From positions 1 to 55,431 of the IMG/VR virus record IMGVR_UViG_3300007523_000015: a stretch of DNA of 55,431 bases. One strand, given 5' to 3'. A program made the translations under genes and the position numbers. This document shows, piece by piece, positions 4,750 through 22,362 of this stretch (positions are counted from its first letter, which is position 1; every line of letters begins with the position of its first letter). The notes under the pieces were generated by a model. The model was not told where the DNA came from. It worked only from the letters and a program-made list of their open reading frames with translations, and did not search any database. The DNA is from a virus. Its lineage: Duplodnaviria; Caudoviricetes.

Positions 4750-5280
4750 CTATTTTTTCTTCAGAAAAGACCTTAACGAGGCAGCACCTTCTAACGGGTC
4801 TACTTTCATGCTCGGCTTAGTCATAGACATGATCTCACCGGATAATGGGTCTATCTTTTGAGCAGTTTTTACCACACTATTCTTCTTCAGTTGATCATAA
4901 ATGTTCTTAGTTGTTGCCATAGTTGCATTATCATCACCCTCTTCCAAGTCTGTGATTCTTAAACTCTTTGTATTGAACATTAAGTCTACTTTCGAACCAA
5001 CACCCGAACTAGAACGCGTCTTCATAAATTGAATTTGGTAACGACCACTTTCTTTCATTGCTGCACTTGTAAAAATACCGACAACGTTATCTGCTGTATT
5101 AACTTTAGAAATACCGCCTGCAATGTGACTTGGGTCGAATTCGATCTCTTCATATGACGAATTGTGTGTAAGAACATCATTAGCAAAGAATAAATGGTCA
5201 CCGGTGGTGGTGATATCTATTGTATCTATTTCACCTATATATTCTATTTCTACAATTTCGTCTTCAAATATTGCTTTCAT
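4750..5280 (-). CDS. 41: gp41/DnaB-like replicative helicase, C-terminal part, preceded by a split-intein C-fragment
   Basis: 40-aa IntC ending ...HLFFANDVLTHN, Ser+1, then helicase C-terminus (SHIAGGISKVNTAD, QFMKTRSSSG). Confidence 0.9.
   Translation of the reverse strand: MKAIFEDEIVEIEYIGEIDTIDITTTGDHLFFANDVLTHNSSYEEIEFDPSHIAGGISKVNTADNVVGIFTSAAMKESGRYQIQFMKTRSSSGVGSKVDLMFNTKSLRITDLEEGDDNATMATTKNIYDQLKKNSVVKTAQKIDPLSGEIMSMTKPSMKVDPLEGAASLRSFLKKK
5161..5280 (-). other. Split intein C-fragment (IntC, 40 aa) of gp41
   Basis: Block F/G IDITTTGDHLFFANDVLTHN|S, similar to the gp41-1 IntC. Confidence 0.9.
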
Positions 5281-6544
5281 TTAAGAACTCCACGCATTCT
5301 GTTATTGTTTGATGTTTATGTTTTACATAGTCCGCCGACCATACTATTTTAATCATGTATCCTAATTCCTGTAAAATACTTAGTCTGATGCGATCCTCTT
5401 CCCAGATCACAGATGAAGTAATCCCCCTTCTCCTCGGATTAGGTGTATCCCGGGGTGCATATATTGACGGGTTAGCATGATAGACATCTCCATAAAATTC
5501 TATTATCCGATTATTATATATCAGATCGGGCTTGATAAAGTGCCGTTTATATTTTCTTTTGGTCTCGTCATCTAGCACAATTGCTGTTTCATTCTCACCA
5601 TAACAAATGGCCCCATTAATAAATACCGAAATATAATCAAACATTTCTGTAGAAATTTTAGATCTAGATCTTGTAGATTTACACGAATTTGCTAAATTAT
5701 CTATTTTCTTTTTAAACAATTTCTTACCTTCTACCTCGCCGTATTTTCCTACAAATGCATCCTCTGTTCCCTTAAATGCTACTCGTGCCCCATTTATATA
5801 TGCTGTGGTTATATCGTTGGACATTTTTGTTATATATTTGAGATAGCTGGTAGTACCGTCGACTTCACCGTGCCTCGAAATAAACGATTCTATCGATGTG
5901 TTGTTCTTAACTTCCTTACACCGTTGACGACCTTCCACATCCCCCAATTCATCTATATATCGTTGACGAGATACCTTGTAACGTTGATTTTTTAGTTTAT
6001 TATAATATACCTCTGAGCCCTTCTCCTTACCATACTTGATAATAAAGAATTCTTCATTGTATTTGGCAAAATTGTATCCATCGATGTGCTTCTGTGCATA
6101 AGATGCTGCACGTTTTATTAAATATGCTTGCCATTTTTGTCTACCTAAAATTTCACCATATCTTTTTATATAATTGCTCTCGGACGCGCCTCGATTTGAT
6201 AATAATTCGTTTGTTCTCTCCACACCATATTTACTAATGTAGTCTGCTCGTGTACGGGCTGATTTAATACATTTTTCCTTAAATCGCCTATACCCTTCTT
6301 TTAATCCATACCTATAATAAAAGAATTTTTTTGATGATGAATCTTTTCCCAATAGAAGTATTTTCGATATACGCTTGCTGAGCGACGAAAACGATACATT
6401 ATATTCCTTTAAAGTCCGGATATACCCGACTACCCGGCTTGCCGACATTTTCCTAGGATTAAATAATTCCTCAGCAACAATTATCTGCTGTTTTTCAAAA
6501 TCAGTAAACCCAATAGGCAAGAGTTTTGATAAATATTTCGACAT
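5264..6544 (-). mobile_element. Free-standing homing endonuclease (Vsr/PD-(D/E)XK-like C-domain, KYG repeats) between the split-intein halves
   Basis: PDLIYNNRIIEFYGDVYHANP; repeated KYG/RYG helical units; ATG at 6544 with GAGGA SD (track uses TTG at 6571). Confidence 0.8.
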
Positions 6545-6576
6545 GTAATTACATCCTCTGTTTAGTTGCAATGCAC

Positions 6577-7872
6577 TTATTTATCTCTTACATACAAGAT
6601 TGACCCCATAGCGAGGCCAGATTCTATACTACATGCCTGGGCTGTAGTTGGGAATATATGAGAACCCGAACAAATAATCTCCTTTCCGGATTTTGTCTTT
6701 ATCTTAAACACTTTTTGTTTCGAATGCCATTTGTCTATAACTGTATTATATACGCCGTCTTTAGACAGGATCTTATCACCTATATTAACATCTTTCAATC
6801 GCACGGTGCCATTTGTTTCAGAAATAATGTTTGTGTTAGGGTGCAGGCAACGGTTCAACTGTGAAGCTGAAACTGTAACAGTCTGTAGTTCCACTGCCAG
6901 GTTACGTAATTCTTCTGTTACATATTTGTCCTTAACAAACAAGTTCTCTGCAGAAATCTTCTTACTCATTGGCATCATTAAATCTAAGTAGTCAACTAAG
7001 ATTGCATCTACTTTTCTTCCCGAATGAATTTCATATTCCTTAATGAATGCTCGTATATCGTTCGACGTACATCCATTGGGAAGTTGCTTAACCCGCAATG
7101 AACCGCCACTCTTTTGCTGCGATGCCCTGACCTTAATGTGAACGTCGTCGATGTTACGCATAACTTCTCGAGTTTCATATCCAGTATGCATTGCATCAAT
7201 ACGCATTGAACAAAGTTTTTCACTAAGTTCTAATGTTAAGTATACTACATTAAATCCAGCCTGGGCCCAATTAACTGCAAGGTTTTGCAAGAAAAGGGAT
7301 TTTCCTGCACCTGATTGTCCTGCAAAGATGGTTATTTCGCCTTTATTAAAGCCGCCATATAGTTTCTCATCGACTGTCTTCCACCCTGTAGAAACTTGTC
7401 CCTTGCCCTCTCTGATCGCCTCGAGACGCTCTTTGGGGTTAGCATAGTAATCTGTTCCCAAATCTTTAACCAGCGCGATCTGTACCGCCGCTTTGATAGA
7501 TGTTTCAACCTCGCCATATCTCCCCTCATCCAATAACTCAGGTGATGCCAATATTGCATCACGCAAAGATTTATATCTACAAAAAAGTTCTATTTCTTTT
7601 AAAAACCATCTATCCTCTTTTGCTGCTACCTCTGGAATAAGTTCAATATTTTTACCCGTAAGTGACCTGACCTGCTCAATAGCCGGCAATGTTGAATAAT
7701 CTTTAAAATGAGAAATAATAATACTAACAACGTCTTTATTTTGCTTATTGTCGAAAAAATTAGCATCTAATATACCGGAACACCTTACAAACAATTCATG
7801 ATTACTCATCATAAATTGTATAAACAACGTTTCTATATCAGAATTGTATTCTTTAATTTCACTTTCCATCAA
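6577..7872 (-). CDS. 41: gp41/DnaB-like replicative helicase, N-terminal part, fused to a split-intein N-fragment
   Basis: Walker [27 protein letters not shown] followed by intein block A CLHPNT. Confidence 0.9.
6580..6849 (-). other. Split intein N-fragment (IntN, 90 aa) of gp41
   Basis: Cys1 CLHPNT...VNIGDKILS...block [10 protein letters not shown]...LYVRDK-stop. Confidence 0.9.
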
Positions 7873-8737
7873 TCTTATCCTTATATTTCTTAATTACAGA
7901 TTCTGATATTTTCTTTTTAGATTCTAAGGAATGATTTTTCCCTGACATACCAGTAACTACCCTTTTTCCAGATTTCCATTCTTCCATTAATCTCTCAGAG
8001 ATTGCAAATTTTTCTTTTGCTGTTTTAGGTGGCAATTTATTTCCTGCATTGGCCTTTCCTATTTTTTCTTTTCTATCATCCGACATTGGTCCTCGCCCTA
8101 ATATCCATCCATTGCTTATATAAGAATTTAATTCATCGAGGCATACCTTTTTTATTATGTCATCTTTTATTATGTATTTCTTACCAGATGGTAACTTGCC
8201 TTTTACCCACCCATCTGATATAAATTTGTCTAGCAAAACCGGATCAATCTTTTTATATTCTATACCGTTGTTTACTGCTATTTTACCTTTTTGTGATTTA
8301 CTCATCCTATCTTTTGTTTCATCGGACCATTTACATCCTGCAGTAGTTGGAATTTTTGTTTTACTTTTTCTTTCTAGCCGTTCTTGTTCGGATAAACTTA
8401 TATAATAGTCCTTTGCAGATTGAGATAATTTTTTAGATGTTTCCTCTGTTGTTATTCTCCCAGCACCCCCTTCTCCGCCGCCAGTTCTGTTCAATAAAAT
8501 TCCGGTCCCGCGGTCTTTTCTTCCCCACCATTTAATATATCTGCGCTCTAATGCAAAAGCACCTACCTCCGATAAATTGTTTTCTAATATAATAATGTAT
8601 GATCTGTTTTTCGGAACAGGGATATTCTTATGGGTACTAAACGCACGGCTGCCGTGACCTTTTCCTATATAATATGGTGTCCCGATTTTTGCTGTAGCAG
8701 AATCTCTGCAACGAATATAGGCATAAATATAAAACAT
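7859..8737 (-). mobile_element. GIY-YIG-like homing endonuclease with NUMOD3-type repeats
   Basis: FYIYAY...PYYIGKG...[10 protein letters not shown], basic C-terminal repeats ([11 protein letters not shown]). Confidence 0.8.
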
Positions 8738-15114: not shown

Positions 15115-15780
15115 ATGATATTTATCGACAACAAATACACTAAGTGTTATTTTAACATCATTGCTATAGCAAAAGCAAGAATTTCGATTACGGGTTATGT
15201 AGAAAAACATCATATTTTGCCACGATCACTCGGTGGAAATAATACTACATCTAATTTAGTGCAATTAACAGCACGAGAACATTTTATATGCCACGCATTA
15301 CTAACTAAAATGACATCTGGGGATGATAGAAGAAAAATGATTTTTGCTTCTAATATGATGTTGTGTGGTAAAAATAGATATGTCCCGTCTGGTAAAATCT
15401 ATCAGATTGTAAAGGAAGATTTTGCCAAAATGTCTTCTATATTACATACTGGAAAATCTATATCAGATAAACAGAAATTATTAATTTCGGAAGCAAATAA
15501 GAATAAAATTGTTTCAGATGAAACATGTATTAAAATTTCTAATAGTAAGATTGGAAAGAAAAGAAAATTGTTTACCGAATCTGCCAAAGAAAATATGAGT
15601 AAATGCAAATTAGGTGAAAAGAATGCAAATTTTGGAAAAACTTTCACGGCTTGCACAATAGAAAAAATGAAGTTATCTGCACAAAATCGGTCTAAATTAA
15701 AATGCCTCTGCGGAAAGGAATGTTCGCCATCAAATTTCAAAAGATGGCATGGAGATAACTGCAAGTTAATTAAATCCTAG
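15115..15780 (+). mobile_element. HNH homing endonuclease with NUMOD3, inserted antisense
   Basis: EKHHILPRSLGG...NLV.LTAREHFICH; C-terminal CxC...WHGDNC; own GATAAATA at 15047-15054. Confidence 0.85.
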
Positions 15781-16101
15781 TGTTTCTTTTCTATATACTT
15801 CCCAGTCGGCATCTAACTTCTTCGGATCTCGTGCAGGACCATATTTGCCGTATGATATCGACCGCTGGCTCACTCCGCATTTGATCAGGTAATCGTAGAG
15901 CATATTCTCGAAACCAAGGTGTCTATATGACAAAAATGTAATGCTTGTCGCAGTTTCTGATGCATCGTTATATGTCAATGTTATCTTCGTCTGATACATG
16001 CCGGGGGATCGTTCCGATATAATAACATCTAATTCATTGGCTGTCATGAATATTTCTATCAGATCCTTATATCCCCACGATATATTTGTTTCTACTATCA
16101 T
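15766..16101 (-). CDS. Hypothetical protein
   Basis: 111-aa ORF coupled to the UvsW C-part (TAATG). Confidence 0.45.
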   Translation of the reverse strand: MIVETNISWGYKDLIEIFMTANELDVIISERSPGMYQTKITLTYNDASETATSITFLSYRHLGFENMLYDYLIKCGVSQRSISYGKYGPARDPKKLDADWEVYRKETLGFN

Positions 16102-16946
16102 TAATAAGTTACCTTTTTAACAGAATACGGATACTCTGCCTCCGCATAAAATTTCTTTCTCTTTGTCAAGTGTCGTTTGGAGAATTTGCAGTTCGAGCAT
16201 ACATCATAAACATTTACAAAGTCCTTATCTGGTGCAACACGAATGCCACGTCCGATACTTTGTATAACCCTTACAAAACTCTTACCAGATTCAAATAATA
16301 CAAGATTAAAAATACGAACAATATTAATGCCCGTAGATGCTACACCATATGTAGCAATAATGACCTTCCCGTCTATTTCTTGAACTTCTTTATATTCGTC
16401 CTTACGGTCCTTTGACTTCATCTGTCCAGAAACAAATACCGAATCTGGTATAAGCAATTGTAACATCTTTCCCGTCTCGATTCTATCTACCAGCACAAGA
16501 GTATTACCCGACTCGGACATAATCTCTACTGACTGTGCAAGAAACTGTAGTCTTGCCTGATTAGTTGTTAACCATTTGAGTTCTGATTGATAATCACTGA
16601 AGGCTGCTGCTTTTAATAAATCCTGCAACTGCCAGACATTCACATGCAATTGTGCAAGTATGCCTTTGTCCTGAAGTTCTTTTGTATTAATTTTGCCAAG
16701 CATCGAGCCAATACATGCCAATATAGACATTTTTTCATGGTCTTCTTCTGGCATTGTTCCGGTTAGTCCCCACCGTATCGGGGCGTTTGCTAACGGGCCA
16801 GATAAGATTTTACGAAGCACATCGGCTTTCGCCTTGTGGCAATTCTGAACTACTGCATCATTAACGATAAAGTTATGGTCATCTTTTATACCTAATGTAT
16901 ATACTTCGGGCGGCTTATCTATTTCTGTTCTTTTTATAAGTTTCAT
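16101..16946 (-). CDS. uvsW: UvsW SF2 helicase, C-terminal part, preceded by a split-intein C-fragment
   Basis: 35-aa IntC ...HNFIVNDAVVQN|CHKAK, then GLTGT, STGINI, QSIGRGIR. Confidence 0.9.
   Translation of the reverse strand: MKLIKRTEIDKPPEVYTLGIKDDHNFIVNDAVVQNCHKAKADVLRKILSGPLANAPIRWGLTGTMPEEDHEKMSILACIGSMLGKINTKELQDKGILAQLHVNVWQLQDLLKAAAFSDYQSELKWLTTNQARLQFLAQSVEIMSESGNTLVLVDRIETGKMLQLLIPDSVFVSGQMKSKDRKDEYKEVQEIDGKVIIATYGVASTGINIVRIFNLVLFESGKSFVRVIQSIGRGIRVAPDKDFVNVYDVCSNCKFSKRHLTKRKKFYAEAEYPYSVKKVTY
16842..16946 (-). other. Split intein C-fragment (IntC, 35 aa) of UvsW
   Basis: MKLIKRTEI...VYTLGIKDDHNFIVNDAVVQN|C; penultimate Gln instead of His. Confidence 0.85.
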
Positions 16947-17012
16947 AGTTTCTTTATCTTATTCTGAGTTTTGATATCAAATAACAACATGCTGATCCCA
17001 TTCTCTACGATC

Positions 17013-18038
17013 TTATGTATTTCGGTTTATGCTTTTTATATCATCTGCAAGAGACAATTGATCTGCTCGTACCCAACCTCGTTGAGTTAAAAACTTATGA
17101 TTTCCTGTAACTTTTATTTTCTTATTATTATCGAACTCTAATTTATACATTTTTTCATTTGACGATTTTGTCAGATTTTTATAGACTGCATCAACGGTAT
17201 CTTCTTTGAATATATTCTCCATTTCTGAATAGTTTATTATCCTATCCCCGACTTTTATTTCCGATATTTTCAAATAGCCCAATGATGTCAAGACTAATGC
17301 ATCTGGGTGAAAACATTCGTCCACCATAACGCAAACTACTCCTTCGAAGAAATCGTTTATATCGATCTCTAAATCGGTTTCTTTCGAACGCTTTGCTAGG
17401 CTTTCCAGACTTTGCCATGTACATATAGTGTGAGTTTTTAAATACTCTTTCCTATCTCCATAAAATACGCCTACATCTAATCCAAGATTGATATAATCTT
17501 CTTCTGTTTGCGTTACTAAATCCTTAGTCGGCACAATCACTATGCTGCGACCATACTGCTGAACCTTATGGCTTAAAATCGCCGTAATTAGCGTTTTTCC
17601 CGAGCCGGTCGGGCAAATATTTACACCGGTTAAGTTGTTCAAATACGAATTAATGCATTCGGTTTGGTGTTCCTTGATAACAATCGGTTGTCCGGCAAGT
17701 GTATGTCCTTTGGGCCAGGTGATATGTGAATAGCTATCTGCAACTACTTCGTCGAAGACAAAGTCGTGTGTCGTATCTCTAAGATCATCTATTTCTATTT
17801 CATATCCCTGTGCCTGAACAATGGGCAACAATGTATCTAATAGATTAAGATATGTGCGCGCTCCTACATCACAGAAAGAGATCTTACCGTTCCATCTTCC
17901 GAGCCGATAAGCTGGAGTATATCGTGCATGCTCCATAAAGAATTCTAAAGACTGTGTCATTTTTCGTCGTGTGACGATATCAAGCCCCTCGAACTTTACG
18001 TTACATTCATCTTGTATGATTAGTTTTGTTGTTGCCAT
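17013..18038 (-). CDS. uvsW: UvsW SF2 helicase, N-terminal part, fused to a split-intein N-fragment
   Basis: PTGSGKT, IVPTKDLVTQ, TWQSL, VMVDE|CFHPDA. Confidence 0.9.
   Translation of the reverse strand: MATTKLIIQDECNVKFEGLDIVTRRKMTQSLEFFMEHARYTPAYRLGRWNGKISFCDVGARTYLNLLDTLLPIVQAQGYEIEIDDLRDTTHDFVFDEVVADSYSHITWPKGHTLAGQPIVIKEHQTECINSYLNNLTGVNICPTGSGKTLITAILSHKVQQYGRSIVIVPTKDLVTQTEEDYINLGLDVGVFYGDRKEYLKTHTICTWQSLESLAKRSKETDLEIDINDFFEGVVCVMVDECFHPDALVLTSLGYLKISEIKVGDRIINYSEMENIFKEDTVDAVYKNLTKSSNEKMYKLEFDNNKKIKVTGNHKFLTQRGWVRADQLSLADDIKSINRNT
17016..17315 (-). other. Split intein N-fragment (IntN, 100 aa) of UvsW
   Basis: CFHPDALV...IKVGD...block B VTGNHKFLT.RGWVRADQL. Confidence 0.88.
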
Positions 18039-18047
18039 TTATATCTG

Positions 18048-18404
18048 TTACGGAGTTTTAGCCGTTAATAATGTGAAAAAGTCCCTGCCCATCTTTTCAT
18101 AGAATGCAGAATCCAATGCAGTACCATCCTGCACTATCTCAATCGGCAATCTTACTGTCATTTCTATCTCCGGAGCAAATTTGTTATTATTCATTGTTAC
18201 TTGTTTTTTTACTAATGTTATCATATGTTTCCTTGTAATTTTTACCATGCCATTAAGACTTTTAGGCAGTATGTGATGCTTTTCTGTATATCCGGTTAAA
18301 ATCCGTGATGACGTAGAAGTAATAATATTCCTATACCACAAAGTATATTTTGAATTTTTACTCATCTCATCTACAATATCTAAATAGTCACACACTTGCA
18401 TCAT
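18048..18404 (-). pseudogene. Truncated HNH endonuclease remnant in frame with a small ORF (MNNNKFAPEIE...)
   Basis: KYTLWYRNII...GYTEKHHILPKSL matches the starts of the HNHs at 15115 and 28659, then breaks off. Confidence 0.6.
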
Positions 18405-18849
18405 CTAAGCCAGCCGTTCTGAGTTTTATTATATTCGAAGAACTAAAAGACTTCTGCTCTAGTGCTTTAGATATGCCCAAATATTTATTTCGCAATAATG
18501 CAACTTCATTTATCAATAAAGTAGAGTCAACAATGCTTGCCACGCCGTCTACATACTTTTCTGCATCTCTGGAACTAAGTGTTTTATTGTATGCTTCTAG
18601 AAACTTTTTAAACTCGGCCGATCTATCCTTACGTAGCTGTATATTTAGATATTCTAATACTGCCTCGATTTCCTGTAACTGAACATACCTATGTTCAACA
18701 ATACCCGGTAACTCGGCTGCATGTTTTTCTAATGTCTTACCTTTAAGGGATAATTCAAATCGTGCAGCCTCGAGTTCCGTTTCGAAGTGTATGATGAAAT
18801 CGGGTATCTTTGATATATCTCCCGTTACTTTATAATACCAGCTCGACAT
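18388..18849 (-). CDS. uvsY: UvsY recombination mediator
   Basis: Helical 153 aa, LSSRDAEKYVDG; lies between uvsX and uvsW. Confidence 0.7.
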   Translation of the reverse strand: MSSWYYKVTGDISKIPDFIIHFETELEAARFELSLKGKTLEKHAAELPGIVEHRYVQLQEIEAVLEYLNIQLRKDRSAEFKKFLEAYNKTLSSRDAEKYVDGVASIVDSTLLINEVALLRNKYLGISKALEQKSFSSSNIIKLRTAGLDDASV

Positions 18850-18861
18850 TCTTATTACCTA

Positions 18862-19170
18862 TCATAGTTGATGTGTTCGTCTGATTGCAATTTCCATAGC
18901 TTGCACCAATAATACTGCTCGTTGAGTTCTTGACATCATTGCTCGTCTAATTGCCATAGCACGTGGAGGAACACCGAGGTCTTCTGCCAAAGCTTTATGT
19001 ATTTTGGTCAGATTTACTGGCTCAGAAATCCACATTACGTAGTCAGCACCCACAGTTTGGTTTTTCATTGATTCTTTAAACTGCTGGACTTGCGTCATGG
19101 TTTTTAGAGCATCCTTGCTTTTAATTGTCTCGAGTAATAATTCTCCAGAATCCTTAGCGGTAGTCGTCAT
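18862..19170 (-). CDS. Hypothetical protein
   Basis: ORF in operon. Confidence 0.45.
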   Translation of the reverse strand: MTTTAKDSGELLLETIKSKDALKTMTQVQQFKESMKNQTVGADYVMWISEPVNLTKIHKALAEDLGVPPRAMAIRRAMMSRTQRAVLLVQAMEIAIRRTHQL

Positions 19171-19402
19171 CTAATAGATCCTCATCTTCGTCATCGAACT
19201 CTTCGATACCATCGGATAAATGACTTCTTGCTGCTGCCCGCATCTCCTTGTCTAGATCCTCATCTAAGAGACTATCTTCGATTAAGCTAAACTCGTCAAA
19301 CACCACTACAAGGATATCTGCTACTTCTAGTCGTTCCTTTGGAGCAATATGTGATTTAATTCTGCCCCACAATTCTAATAATAATTCATGATTTTCGTTC
19401 AT
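19154..19402 (-). CDS. Acidic hypothetical protein
   Basis: Likely start MNENH at 19402 with AAGGA SD. Confidence 0.5.
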   Translation of the reverse strand: MNENHELLLELWGRIKSHIAPKERLEVADILVVVFDEFSLIEDSLLDEDLDKEMRAAARSHLSDGIEEFDDEDEDLLDDDYR

Positions 19403-19403
19403 A

Positions 19404-20504
19404 TTATTCCTTTTCCTTTTCTTCTGCTTGTTTTCTCTCATCTTCGTCCGTGATAACTGCAATTAGATCGTCTTGTGTGAATTCATTCATTAGAATCTTC
19501 ATACTTTCTAGATCATTGTTCCAAGCCTTCTTAAACTGCTTAATCACTTTACCAGTTACTCCGGAAGTATAGACATAACTGTTACCTTCCTTAACCAGTT
19601 TCCCGGCTTTTTCGAAAAGATCGAACAGACCCGATGTGGGATTCATACCTGTTTCCCACGGAATATCAATCTTAATTGATTCGAACGGTTTCGAATATCG
19701 TGTCTTAACAACTTTACATGTTGCACGAATTCCTCGAATATCGGCACCGGTAGTTTTGTTTCCGTCTTCGTCTTCTTTAAGTTTATATTTCTTCATAGCA
19801 ATAATGATACTAGATGCAAACATGAATCCAGATCCGCCTGAAATCTTGTCATCTGGATCAAACATATCCTGGCTTGCATATGTGTGATTTGTAACAACCA
19901 TACCAATATTCAAGTCACCGAACATATTAACACAATTAGATACGAATGCCTTTAACTGTTTTGCTTTTCGACCCATGTCGCCTTTCATATCAGCTGCTTC
20001 GAACTGTTTAACTTCTGTAGGAGTTAATAACATGCCCAAAGAGTCAATAATGAATAAGATTTTTGGTCGATTTTCTTTTGCTAAGTCTAGATGATTTGCT
20101 TTGTAGTCGGTCACAAATGCGTGAACAATTCCTGCAACGTCATCAATCATTGATGCGCTAATACGTAACATCTTTTCTTCGCTTGTGTCTACACCTAAAT
20201 TGTGCAACCACTTTTCATCAAGTGCATTCTCTGTGTCAATCATAACAACAAAGATTCCCTGTTCCTGAGCATTCTTAGCAATGTTGCCAGAAACAATATA
20301 TGATTTGCCGGCTCCTGATTCGCCTGCAAATACTGTTACCTTACCCATCGGGACTCCGCGATCGAAGTCTCCGCTGATAAGGAAGTTTAAACCGTAGGAT
20401 CCTGTACTAACCCAAGTATCGGGGTCGTTGAATCCTGTAGAAATTCCTGTAATACTTTTAGTCACAGCTTTCCTAAATTTTGATATGTCAAACGGCTTAG
20501 CCAT
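19404..20504 (-). CDS. uvsX: UvsX RecA-like recombinase
   Basis: GESGAGKS, IDTENALD, IDSLG, SGGSG. Confidence 0.9.
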   Translation of the reverse strand: MAKPFDISKFRKAVTKSITGISTGFNDPDTWVSTGSYGLNFLISGDFDRGVPMGKVTVFAGESGAGKSYIVSGNIAKNAQEQGIFVVMIDTENALDEKWLHNLGVDTSEEKMLRISASMIDDVAGIVHAFVTDYKANHLDLAKENRPKILFIIDSLGMLLTPTEVKQFEAADMKGDMGRKAKQLKAFVSNCVNMFGDLNIGMVVTNHTYASQDMFDPDDKISGGSGFMFASSIIIAMKKYKLKEDEDGNKTTGADIRGIRATCKVVKTRYSKPFESIKIDIPWETGMNPTSGLFDLFEKAGKLVKEGNSYVYTSGVTGKVIKQFKKAWNNDLESMKILMNEFTQDDLIAVITDEDERKQAEEKEKE

Positions 20505-21156
20505 TATAATTTTCCTTTTTATAAATTATATTAATATGTTTCTTAAAATTTCCAGGATCATACATTTTGCCACAATGCAAACACGAGATGCGAGCCGAAG
20601 TAACACCTTTATTCCATGCTATTTTTCCAGAATGTAACTTGGATAAATTATCCTTAAATTCCTGTGTTCTGATCTTCCCCTTATTCTTGTGATTGTTTGT
20701 ATCCTGTTGTTTAAATTTTATTCCCTTCCTTCCGTTAGGGTGACCTTTGCGACTTTCACTATTCTTAAAGTTCTGTTCTGGTGTTCTCTTTATTCCCTTA
20801 TTTGCAGATCCCATTTTAATACGAGTTTGTATAGATGGATTCGAGTTGCCTTCCCCGCCATCTGTTAAATTAAGCAATGTGCCCAGCCCCGTATCTTTTC
20901 TTCCGAATTTTGCAATTAATTCCACTTCTATCAAAAATGAAAATTCTTCATCTAATCCAGAATATAAGCCTATAACAGGTTTAATATTGTTTCTCTTCAT
21001 GAATTGTAATCGTTGTATAAACGGATGCCTTTTACGGCGAGTCAAATGTTGCCAGGCTCGTGTCCCGTGCCCTTTTCCCACATAAATAGGCTCGTTATTA
21101 CGAGATGGGTCATAATAGATATAGGTGTAGAATTTATCAATCATATACAAAAGCAA
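20497..21156 (-). mobile_element. GIY-YIG-like homing endonuclease
   Basis: FYTYIY...PIYVGKG..R, LLNLTDGGEG, NUMOD3-like tail, CLHC. Confidence 0.8.
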
Positions 21157-21178
21157 AGGATTTTAGTCCTTTGCTTCA
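21148..21178 (-). terminator. Intrinsic terminator after ssb
   Basis: AAGCAAAGGA/TCCTTTGCTT hairpin followed by T run on the minus strand. Confidence 0.6.
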
Positions 21179-21191
21179 ATCGATTAGATAA

Positions 21192-22202
21192 TTATTGTTT
21201 CCTGTTCCTGAGCATTTGCAGAATCTCTTGTGGAGATTTGCCAGTTGTTGCTGGCGCCGTAGATGCTGCCGACTCGACAGCAGAGACTGCTTCTTCTAAG
21301 TCAGGATCTGCAACTGGTGCAACCTTTGTCGGTGTCGGTGTCGGCGCTGGGCGTAAAGTAGTTGGACGTTTTGTGTCCTCGTCCGCATCCTTTGATGACG
21401 AAGTGCCTGAATCGAAGCCGAATGGCTTGTAGAATGTAGCCCACTTTTCCGGATCATAAAGATCACCATCGAGAGATGCCTGGAACATTTCGTACATAAT
21501 GGCCAAGTCAGCCTGTGTAGGCTTCTTTGGGAGATATGATTTCAGGTCTACTAAACCATATTGGTCAATTGCTTCTTGCATGTCTTCTGTAATACTCGAT
21601 TCCTTTCTGGCCCACTTTGATGTTGCGTAGTCTGCATAGCCGCCCTTGCTTGTTTTATTAACAATGAAATCCAATCCATTTATAATATGAACCGGGCTAT
21701 GTTCCATTTCGGGATCCAACAAAGCTGCTTTCACAGTTGCGAAAAGCTGTGGGCCAATGACGAATTTACGAATCGGATTGTCCGGAGAGTCTTCATTCAT
21801 TGGATCCACTTTAACGAATCCTTGCATGTAATACGCTCTCTTAACCCAATATTTACGAGCTGTGTCCTCGAGCGACTTATCCTTCCACCATGGTCGTACT
21901 TCGTTAAGGATAGGGCATGTCTTTGCCCCATCGAACATCTCGATACACGGGACTTGTACTTCTACTCGTTTGCTTTCGTCCTGCCCCTTGATGCCTGCGA
22001 AGGGCAGTTTGATAATTTGACGCTCTGTCCAGAAGAATGTGTTGTCTTCGTTTGCGTCTGGTAAAAATCGCAATGTGCAGGAAGTTCCTTCTGCGATATT
22101 CCAGTGTGCGTATGTAGCTTTATCTCCACCAGTGAAGTTTCCACCCTTACGATTGTCTAGTGCTTGTAATTTTTTACGAATTTCTTCCAATGTTTTACTC
22201 AT
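21192..22202 (-). CDS. 32: Single-stranded DNA-binding protein (gp32-like)
   Basis: LRFLPD, CPI, YWVKR, DFIVNKTSKGGYADY.TSKW; start MSKTLEEIR at 22202. Confidence 0.85.
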   Translation of the reverse strand: MSKTLEEIRKKLQALDNRKGGNFTGGDKATYAHWNIAEGTSCTLRFLPDANEDNTFFWTERQIIKLPFAGIKGQDESKRVEVQVPCIEMFDGAKTCPILNEVRPWWKDKSLEDTARKYWVKRAYYMQGFVKVDPMNEDSPDNPIRKFVIGPQLFATVKAALLDPEMEHSPVHIINGLDFIVNKTSKGGYADYATSKWARKESSITEDMQEAIDQYGLVDLKSYLPKKPTQADLAIMYEMFQASLDGDLYDPEKWATFYKPFGFDSGTSSSKDADEDTKRPTTLRPAPTPTPTKVAPVADPDLEEAVSAVESAASTAPATTGKSPQEILQMLRNRKQ

Positions 22203-22362
22203 ACTATTTCCTTTTATAAATGTTATATTTTGCTTATGCTTTAACAATTAAGATACATTAATCTCGTTTGTTGTATTGAACGCTATCATCTGAGACTACG
22301 ATCTACTCGGGTCACGTTAAACCCTTTCGCACCTTACCTATTAAAGTTTTCGTCTGTAGCTA

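Follow-up and report, generated by a model that had tools for sequence, protein, structure and literature searches.

A naturally split intein inside motif II of a jumbo-phage UvsW helicase

The viral DNA analyzed here is the IMG/VR record IMGVR_UViG_3300007523_000015 (Duplodnaviria; Caudoviricetes). The stretch, which we call the window, is the entire record of 55,431 bp; its completeness is estimated at 14%, and its proteins find their best matches in jumbo phages, e.g., PA5oct and Rak2-like phages. On the minus strand of the window, the recombination helicase UvsW is encoded by two adjacent genes, which are interrupted inside motif II of the ATPase by sequences resembling the two parts of an intein. 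This arrangement raises the question of how an active helicase could be produced from genes that are broken within an ATP-binding motif. We conclude that the locus very probably encodes a functional, naturally split class 1 intein, which is split at the canonical site into 100 and 35 amino acids (aa) and inserted between Glu and Cys of motif II (DE/CH, the slash marking the junction) of a jumbo-phage UvsW. As judged from the sequence, an essential-type recombination helicase would here depend on protein trans-splicing.

Two genes for one UvsW

The N-half open reading frame (ORF) is located at 17013..18038 and encodes 341 aa (all positions within the uvsW locus refer to the minus strand). It starts with the UvsW N-extein (residues 1-241; 17316..18038), which contains the N-terminal domain, motif I (PTGSGKT) and the residues D-E of motif II, and continues with the N-terminal intein fragment (IntN) of 100 aa (residues 242-341; 17016..17315), so that its C-terminal sequence reads ...VCVMVDE/CFHPD...KVTGNHKFL...INRNT, followed by a TAA stop at 17013..17015. 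A spacer of 66 nucleotides (nt; 16947..17012) separates it from the C-half ORF (16101..16946, 281 aa), whose product begins with MKLIKRTEIDKPPEVYTLGIKDDHNFIVNDAVVQN and, across the junction, CHKAK.... The C-terminal intein fragment (IntC) comprises 35 aa (16842..16946) and ends with V-V-Q-N, and the UvsW C-extein (246 aa plus stop; 16101..16841) carries the +1 Cys and the following His, the TGT of motif III and the Helicase_C domain. These ORF translations agree in full with a first-pass annotation of the window, which had given the same coordinates, lengths (100 + 35 aa, 66 nt) and junction residues. Both ORFs lie in one reading frame, but three stops (two TAA and one TGA) occur within the 23 intervening codons, so that a single base error, readthrough or a recoded stop cannot yield one gene.

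Both halves are recognizable as UvsW. The N-half matches the Pfam families ResIII and DEAD, and the C-half matches Helicase_C; the UvsW_N family (PF21241) scores 24.5 bits on the N-half, slightly below its cut-off of 25.3 bits. A profile of 68 N-halves aligns with residues 2-235 of T4 UvsW (1rif/2oca, E 1.5e-53), and a profile of 34 C-halves aligns with residues 232-473 (E 4.4e-28). The two profiles tile T4 UvsW, which indicates that the two genes constitute one UvsW and meet inside motif II. In the alignment with 2oca (residues 232-472, E 2.9e-19), the D-E-C-H of T4 UvsW is paired with the Q-N/C-H of the C-half. The profiles and this alignment together place the break at DE/CH, bearing out the earlier assignment to a UvsW helicase with an intein inside motif II. 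In addition, phrog_16259 and phrog_9690 match the N-half and the C-half end to end (E 2.3e-53 and 3.1e-57, respectively). The N-terminal domain, motifs I and II (DExH) and Helicase_C domain expected of a UvsW-family superfamily 2 (SF2) helicase are all present. Motif I and D-E are supplied by the N-half, whereas the C-half provides what remains of motif II together with motif III and the second RecA-like domain, hence neither half should work alone.

The two genes probably share a transcript, from which each half is translated on its own. The RNA fold of the spacer is not significant (z-score 0.01), promoter-like or terminator-like sites at the spacer show no excess over shuffled sequences, and TATAAATA does not occur within the uvsW locus. 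A megablast search of positions 15900-18200 against 50,697 phage records returned zero matches.

Catalytic residues and predicted docking of the intein halves

The intein identity of the inserted sequence is evident from several searches. HINT-type Pfam families match N-half residues 238-334, and the Intein_splicing family (PF14890) scores 53.5 bits (cut-off 35.8 bits, E 8.3e-16) when the stretch is read across the stops; on the N-half by itself it reaches 34.4 bits, slightly below the cut-off. IntN also matches the solved mini- and split inteins 4o1r, 6frg, 1mi8, 7cfv, 8ubs and 6qaz, among them the DnaB, DnaX, NrdJ-1 and gp41-1 inteins. Besides this HINT match, the features of a class 1 intein are found at the expected positions: a Cys at position 1 (C242, codon TGT, 17313-17315), the block B Thr-x-x-His (T311-G-N-H314, 17097-17108), and a terminal Asn (N35, AAT, 16842-16844) followed by the +1 Cys (TGC, 16839-16841). 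Across the alignment of 68 N-halves, no variation is seen at C242, G312, N313 or H314, and at least 90% of the sequences retain T311. Among 34 C-halves, M1, H24, N25, V32, V33, N35, C36 and H37 are invariant and position 34 is variable; the terminal Asn and +1 Cys are found in all 50 C-halves that start with IntC.

The penultimate His, common in class 1 inteins and non-obligatory, is absent from the window, which has Gln34 (CAG, 16845-16847) at this position. Within the 50 C-halves, the window's own included, the penultimate residue is Ser in 23, Glu in 11, Gln in eight, Ala in eight and His in none, and elsewhere it is Lys in one locus (L044) and His in the branch of the phages S16 and PM2. 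The split Ssp DnaE intein reportedly lacks the penultimate His too, as Sun et al. are said to have described in 2005. Phage class 1 inteins are often without this His, inteins of this kind are known to splice, and an upstream block-F His can take over its role, according to the part of Kelley 2016 (PMC5050341) available to us. The variability of the position, the lack of His in all 50 C-halves and the existence of other His-less inteins suggest that the Gln-Asn ending is an ordinary variant. The Gln that the first-pass annotation had singled out in place of the usual His is therefore genuine but not special, since Ser, Glu, Gln or Ala occupies the position in 50 of 50 C-halves.

We modelled the two chains together, using N-half residues 237-341 and C-half residues 1-45 with alignments of our own. 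IntN and IntC reached a docking score of 0.66, compared with 0.01 for the best control; at least 94% of the contacts are common to the runs, and the partner shows a predicted local distance difference test (pLDDT) value of at least 69. Of 157 solved complexes, 116 attained this docking mark, as did two of 215 mismatched pairs. Moreover, the structure predicted for P0173, a relative that occurs naturally as one chain, shows an all-beta insertion at this site (mean pLDDT 86), and its best structural match is T4 UvsW (2oca, E 6.8e-25). In the proposed mechanism, IntN and IntC would dock into one HINT domain, and Cys1, the +1 Cys and Asn35 would perform protein trans-splicing, giving rise to a UvsW of 487 aa with the motif II DECH. 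T4 UvsW itself reads DECH, hence the spliced product should be functional. The assignment of a naturally split, canonical-site intein inside UvsW motif II is thus supported by the conserved catalytic residues, more than 100 homologous split halves and the predicted IntN/IntC complex.

Family, endonuclease relic and homing

The window belongs to an extensive family. A word-based search with IntN returned 114 of 170 candidates at E <= 0.001, mostly of 323-351 aa, and an exhaustive search of representatives clustered at 50% identity gave 1493 matches at E <= 0.001, 199 of them at E <= 1e-10. Among the best 150 of these 199 clusters, 81 consist of the UvsW N-part and IntN and end at IntN, 25 end with IntN and have a shortened or undetected N-part, 15 carry extra sequence past IntN, seven are single-chain (cis) forms, and 22 belong to other hosts. 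A search for split UvsW inteins, as had been proposed with the initial prediction, thereby yielded more than 100 homologous N-halves. The element also occurs in ten records of cultured phages of Salmonella and Proteus, annotated as 'DNA helicase', 'hypothetical protein' and 'DNA helicase/UvsW'. As an observation aside, matches 43% identical to IntN occur in four unannotated records of the Lak megaphages of Prevotella (Lak-B2, B4, B7 and B8).

To see the arrangements at the site, 80 loci from IMG/VR and 80 from metagenomes were fetched, two collections that share contigs. Most of them bear no intein at the junction (67 in IMG/VR and 66 in the metagenomes). Ten and eight loci, respectively, have an intervening ORF within a gap of about 900 nt, and three and two have a contiguous mini-intein. 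The remaining forms were found in the metagenomes only: one locus has a 242-nt spacer coding for the last ~80 aa of the intervening ORF (L112:3530-3771), another is split independently, with no endonuclease and a spacer of 30 nt (L121:1452-1481), and two loci are cut off or of undetermined arrangement. The contiguous mini-intein relatives are L033-35, L110-111 and P0173, while in P0172 (637 aa) the N-extein, IntN and an endonuclease are fused in frame.

The intein-free alleles join exactly at the junction; they account for 133 of 159 loci and, after de-duplication, for 102 of 119, with 17 of 119 bearing the intein. Motif II of the intein-free alleles is DEVH in 94 of the 102 distinct junctions and DECH in four, and Cys is present at +1 in every intein-bearing allele. 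This distribution indicates that the Cys of the rebuilt motif travels with the intein. Precise loss of an intein could account for the four intein-free loci with DECH (L043, L045, L077 and L146). A further observation concerns the N-halves P0170, P0171, P0174, P0175, P0176 and P0166, which contain an extra contiguous LAGLIDADG intein in Walker A (GAGK/...HN/T); together with the split IntN at DE/C, it indicates that both ATP-binding motifs of UvsW are intein sites.

In 18 intein-bearing loci (duplicates included), as well as in S16 and PM2, an endonuclease gene is located between the two halves, with measured ORFs of 298-311 aa. Its product is composed of NUMOD3 and a TnsA-like PD-(D/E)xK domain and matches PHROG 'endonuclease' families (the query for locus L102 began at position 610, four codons inside the ORF, which leaves the result unaffected). 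The endonucleases of the jumbo-phage loci and those of S16 and PM2 are homologous and share a conserved D...E-x-K motif, and the 3' end of the gene overlaps the IntC start by 4-38 nt. The window has the two genes of a fractured gene, each composed of a host half and an intein half. In the place of a free-standing endonuclease gene, it has the 66-nt spacer, which holds a relic of one. A 15-codon ORF, MLLFDIKTQNKIKKL followed by a stop, is located at 16943..16990, and its TGA overlaps the ATG of IntC. The last 36 nt of the spacer read F-D-I-K-T-Q-N-K-I-K-K-L-stop (12 codons), and these 12 codons fit the C-terminus of the endonuclease in the relatives, FD.(N/K)TQ.(K/R)I(K/R)KL. The 5' part of the spacer (TAA to ATGTTG) was also considered as a relic and dropped, as no clear match was found in any fetched locus. 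The ATGTTG common to the spacer and the start of the L102 endonuclease may be a coincidence, and we limit the claim of a relic to the 3' 12 codons.

Locus L102, a 2406-nt metagenome contig, is the nearest relative of the window and retains the endonuclease gene; IntN and IntC are identical in 95 of 97 and 34 of 35 aa, respectively, and 873 nt of L102 are replaced by 43 nt in the window. The synonymous divergence (dS) between them is 0.86 for the N-extein, 0.035 for IntN and 0 for IntC. In a sliding plot, the nucleotide identity is 97-100% across the intein, about 87-97% in the adjoining ~160 nt upstream and 60 nt downstream, and 53-90% beyond. Protein identities of host and intein are also incongruent in other relatives (N-extein/IntN: 77/98% in P0001, 98/93% in P0003, and 22-24/56% in SEA1 and PM2). 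Near-identical intein DNA within diverged exteins, together with the incongruent identities, is expected of recent homing with co-conversion and subsequent endonuclease loss. We thus propose that the element represents a 'fractured gene' homing parasite, made of a split intein and a free-standing PD-(D/E)xK/NUMOD3 endonuclease gene. It probably entered the uvsW of the window recently by homing, and the endonuclease gene was then deleted, leaving the 12-codon relic. In a freshwater sequencing run (X5), a near-identical IntC was found with a loose end at 16946 that, compared by eye, matches the L102 endonuclease tail reverse-complemented; this run therefore seems to contain an allele that bears the endonuclease gene, and alleles with and without the gene may co-occur in related samples.

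Alternative readings and known systems

Several points weigh against a functional split intein. The penultimate His, which aids Asn cyclization, is replaced by Gln, and the residue there varies across the family. Solved split-intein structures exist, and the docking pass may therefore reflect likeness to them rather than binding, possibly stemming from the model's memory. The Shine-Dalgarno-like stretch before the ATG of IntC looks weaker than that of L102 (AAAGAA vs AAGGAA), hence the C-half could be made at a lower level. Finally, the selection figure discussed below covers the N-extein only, since an indel shifted the C-extein alignment, and the sequencing support consists of assembled contigs, with two of the three runs possibly being the source sample.

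In one rival reading, the intein halves would serve as a non-covalent clasp, holding the UvsW halves together as a two-chain helicase with slow or absent splicing. The missing penultimate His would suit such a clasp, and the docking model backs association only and is silent on chemistry. However, a clasp would not need C1, the Thr and His of block B, the terminal Asn and the +1 Cys, all of which are present and conserved family-wide; moreover, with the gene broken within motif II, a HINT domain of 135 aa left uncut would occupy the ATPase site, and we consider this reading very improbable. The loss of the endonuclease gene, the weak-looking ribosome-binding site before the C-half and the several endonuclease relics around the locus could instead be signs of decay, i.e., of a uvsW inactivated by the element in a phage that manages without it. 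This is likewise very improbable in our view, as both ORFs (341 and 281 aa) are intact, the ratio of nonsynonymous to synonymous divergence (dN/dS) of the N-extein relative to L102 is 0.03 at the dS of 0.86, and the arrangement in two genes persists in no fewer than 81 clusters (50% identity) as well as in phages that are cultured and viable.

The common reading frame of the two ORFs and the existence of contiguous mini-intein relatives also bring to mind an artefact, in which a sequencing or assembly error has disrupted a contiguous cis mini-intein, or a different genetic code allows its stop to be read through. The three stops of two kinds within 23 codons speak against it, and so do the more than 100 homologous N-halves ending at the same place and the nature of the spacer, which is a recognizable endonuclease relic and not an intein linker. 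The TAA at 17013, for which confirmation in reads had been suggested, is present in assembled contigs from three runs. Logan contigs of the runs X1 and X2, both possibly the source of the window, are identical to it over 16600-17500, and a 386-nt contig of the independent run X4 spans 16970-17355 with the TAA intact and three differences elsewhere, extending ~15 nt past the deletion joint, which is too few to count as bridging. We give this artefact next to no credence, and a functional, naturally split intein remains by far our preferred explanation of the locus.

Taken by itself, the window contributes little more than a clear instance of the endonuclease-loss stage. At the family level, DE/CH of UvsW displays almost every published stage of gene breaking, namely the empty site, the contiguous mini-intein, the fractured gene with endonuclease, the in-frame endonuclease fusion, the 5'-truncated endonuclease and the endonuclease-free split, plus a measurable homing and co-conversion tract. 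For protein engineering, the family is a source of numerous natural split inteins, divided at the canonical site, with a +1 Cys, an acidic -1 context and a non-His penultimate residue, whose speed and orthogonality could be compared in screens. As regards annotation, GenBank and PHROGs present the halves of one uvsW as if they were two helicases. A bolder proposal, which we regard as unlikely, is that the DE/CH split inteins of UvsW form a very large unpublished family, ranging from jumbo phages to T4-like coliphage relatives, whose endonuclease-free alleles are retained because trans-splicing, tuned by the freely varying penultimate residue, sets the timing and amount of active UvsW. In such alleles the intein would be more than a parasite, and trans-splicing would control when replication passes from the origin-dependent to the recombination-dependent mode.

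The surroundings of the split gene are those of a T4-type recombination module, with genes for UvsY-like (phrog_231), UvsX-like (phrog_97, E 6e-66) and SSB (phrog_1192) proteins adjoining uvsW on the same strand (18388..22247). Free-standing homing-endonuclease genes crowd this module. An intact HNH/NUMOD3 gene (15115..15780, plus strand; phrog_655, E 2e-49) lies immediately downstream of uvsW, and a shortened relic of the same family, covering only profile positions 13-61 of 343, lies immediately upstream (18048..18404, minus strand). Two endonuclease-like ORFs are located beside the gp41 and uvsX genes (7859..8737 and 20497..21156, both minus strand).

Another split intein is found in the window, in the gene of a DnaB/gp41-like helicase (4750..7872, minus strand) that is fractured in the classical way. 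Its N-part with IntN (6577..7872) ends in ...QLNR/CLHPN..., the IntC with the C-part (4750..5280) reads ...DVLTHN/SSY, and a 435-aa ORF (5264..6571) with a weak C-terminal match to a restriction-endonuclease fold lies between them, all on the minus strand. Its halves match the solved gp41-1 intein 6qaz with E values of 1.3e-11 and 1.4e-5. Like gp41-1, the UvsW intein comes from a phage, is naturally split and has a similar geometry, with a weak IntN match between the two (E 1.7e-4); it differs from gp41-1 in host and insertion site and in its only distantly related sequence. In addition, T-H-N precedes a Ser at the end of the gp41-1 relative in the window, and V-Q-N precedes a Cys at the end of the UvsW intein.

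How far the system was known can be judged from earlier surveys. The hosts of split inteins named in the part of Dassa 2009 (PMC2677866) available to us are gp41, IMPDH, DnaE, NrdA, NrdJ, ligase and terminase, and UvsW is not among these. We found no description of a UvsW intein in the portions of the literature searched; the supplementary tables of intein surveys, which were outside the search, could list one. The earlier suggestion of a possibly undescribed host thus holds for that literature, but the element is abundant in public data, occurring in cultured phages and in two PHROG families.

In the fractured genes of Dassa 2009, as far as that partly consulted account goes, the 3' end of a free-standing endonuclease gene overlaps IntC and supplies its start codon, and endonuclease loss is step III of the gene-breaking model, exemplified by gp41-7. 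These genes and the window have in common a phage DNA-metabolism gene that is broken at the endonuclease-insertion site of the intein into adjacent genes; the host of the window differs in being UvsW, with the insertion in SF2 helicase motif II. Like the window, gp41-7 has lost its endonuclease gene; unlike it, gp41-7 is reported to have a hairpin upstream of its C-part, which has no counterpart in the window, and the window keeps a readable coding relic of the endonuclease. Non-His residues before the terminal Asn are shared with the inteins of Kelley 2016 (PMC5050341), and the role of the upstream block-F His may be compared with the invariant His24 here. The His-less inteins known from phages and from Ssp DnaE have Gly, Lys, Ser or Ala at this position, whereas the window has Gln and the UvsW family ranges over Ser, Glu, Gln, Ala and Lys.

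Also among the closest known systems are the fractured uvsW genes of the Salmonella phages S16, STP4-a and SEA1 and the Proteus phage PM2, which share with the window the insertion at DE/C and a homologous IntN (57-58% identity). The PHROG families 16259 and 9690 include uvsW halves of the S16/PM2 type, and the endonuclease between the S16 and PM2 halves (~290 aa) is homologous to that of the window's relatives. In contrast to the window, S16 and PM2 keep the endonuclease gene, their IntC ends with A-H-N and so has the canonical penultimate His, and the N-exteins of the SEA1/PM2 type are only 22-24% identical to that of the window.

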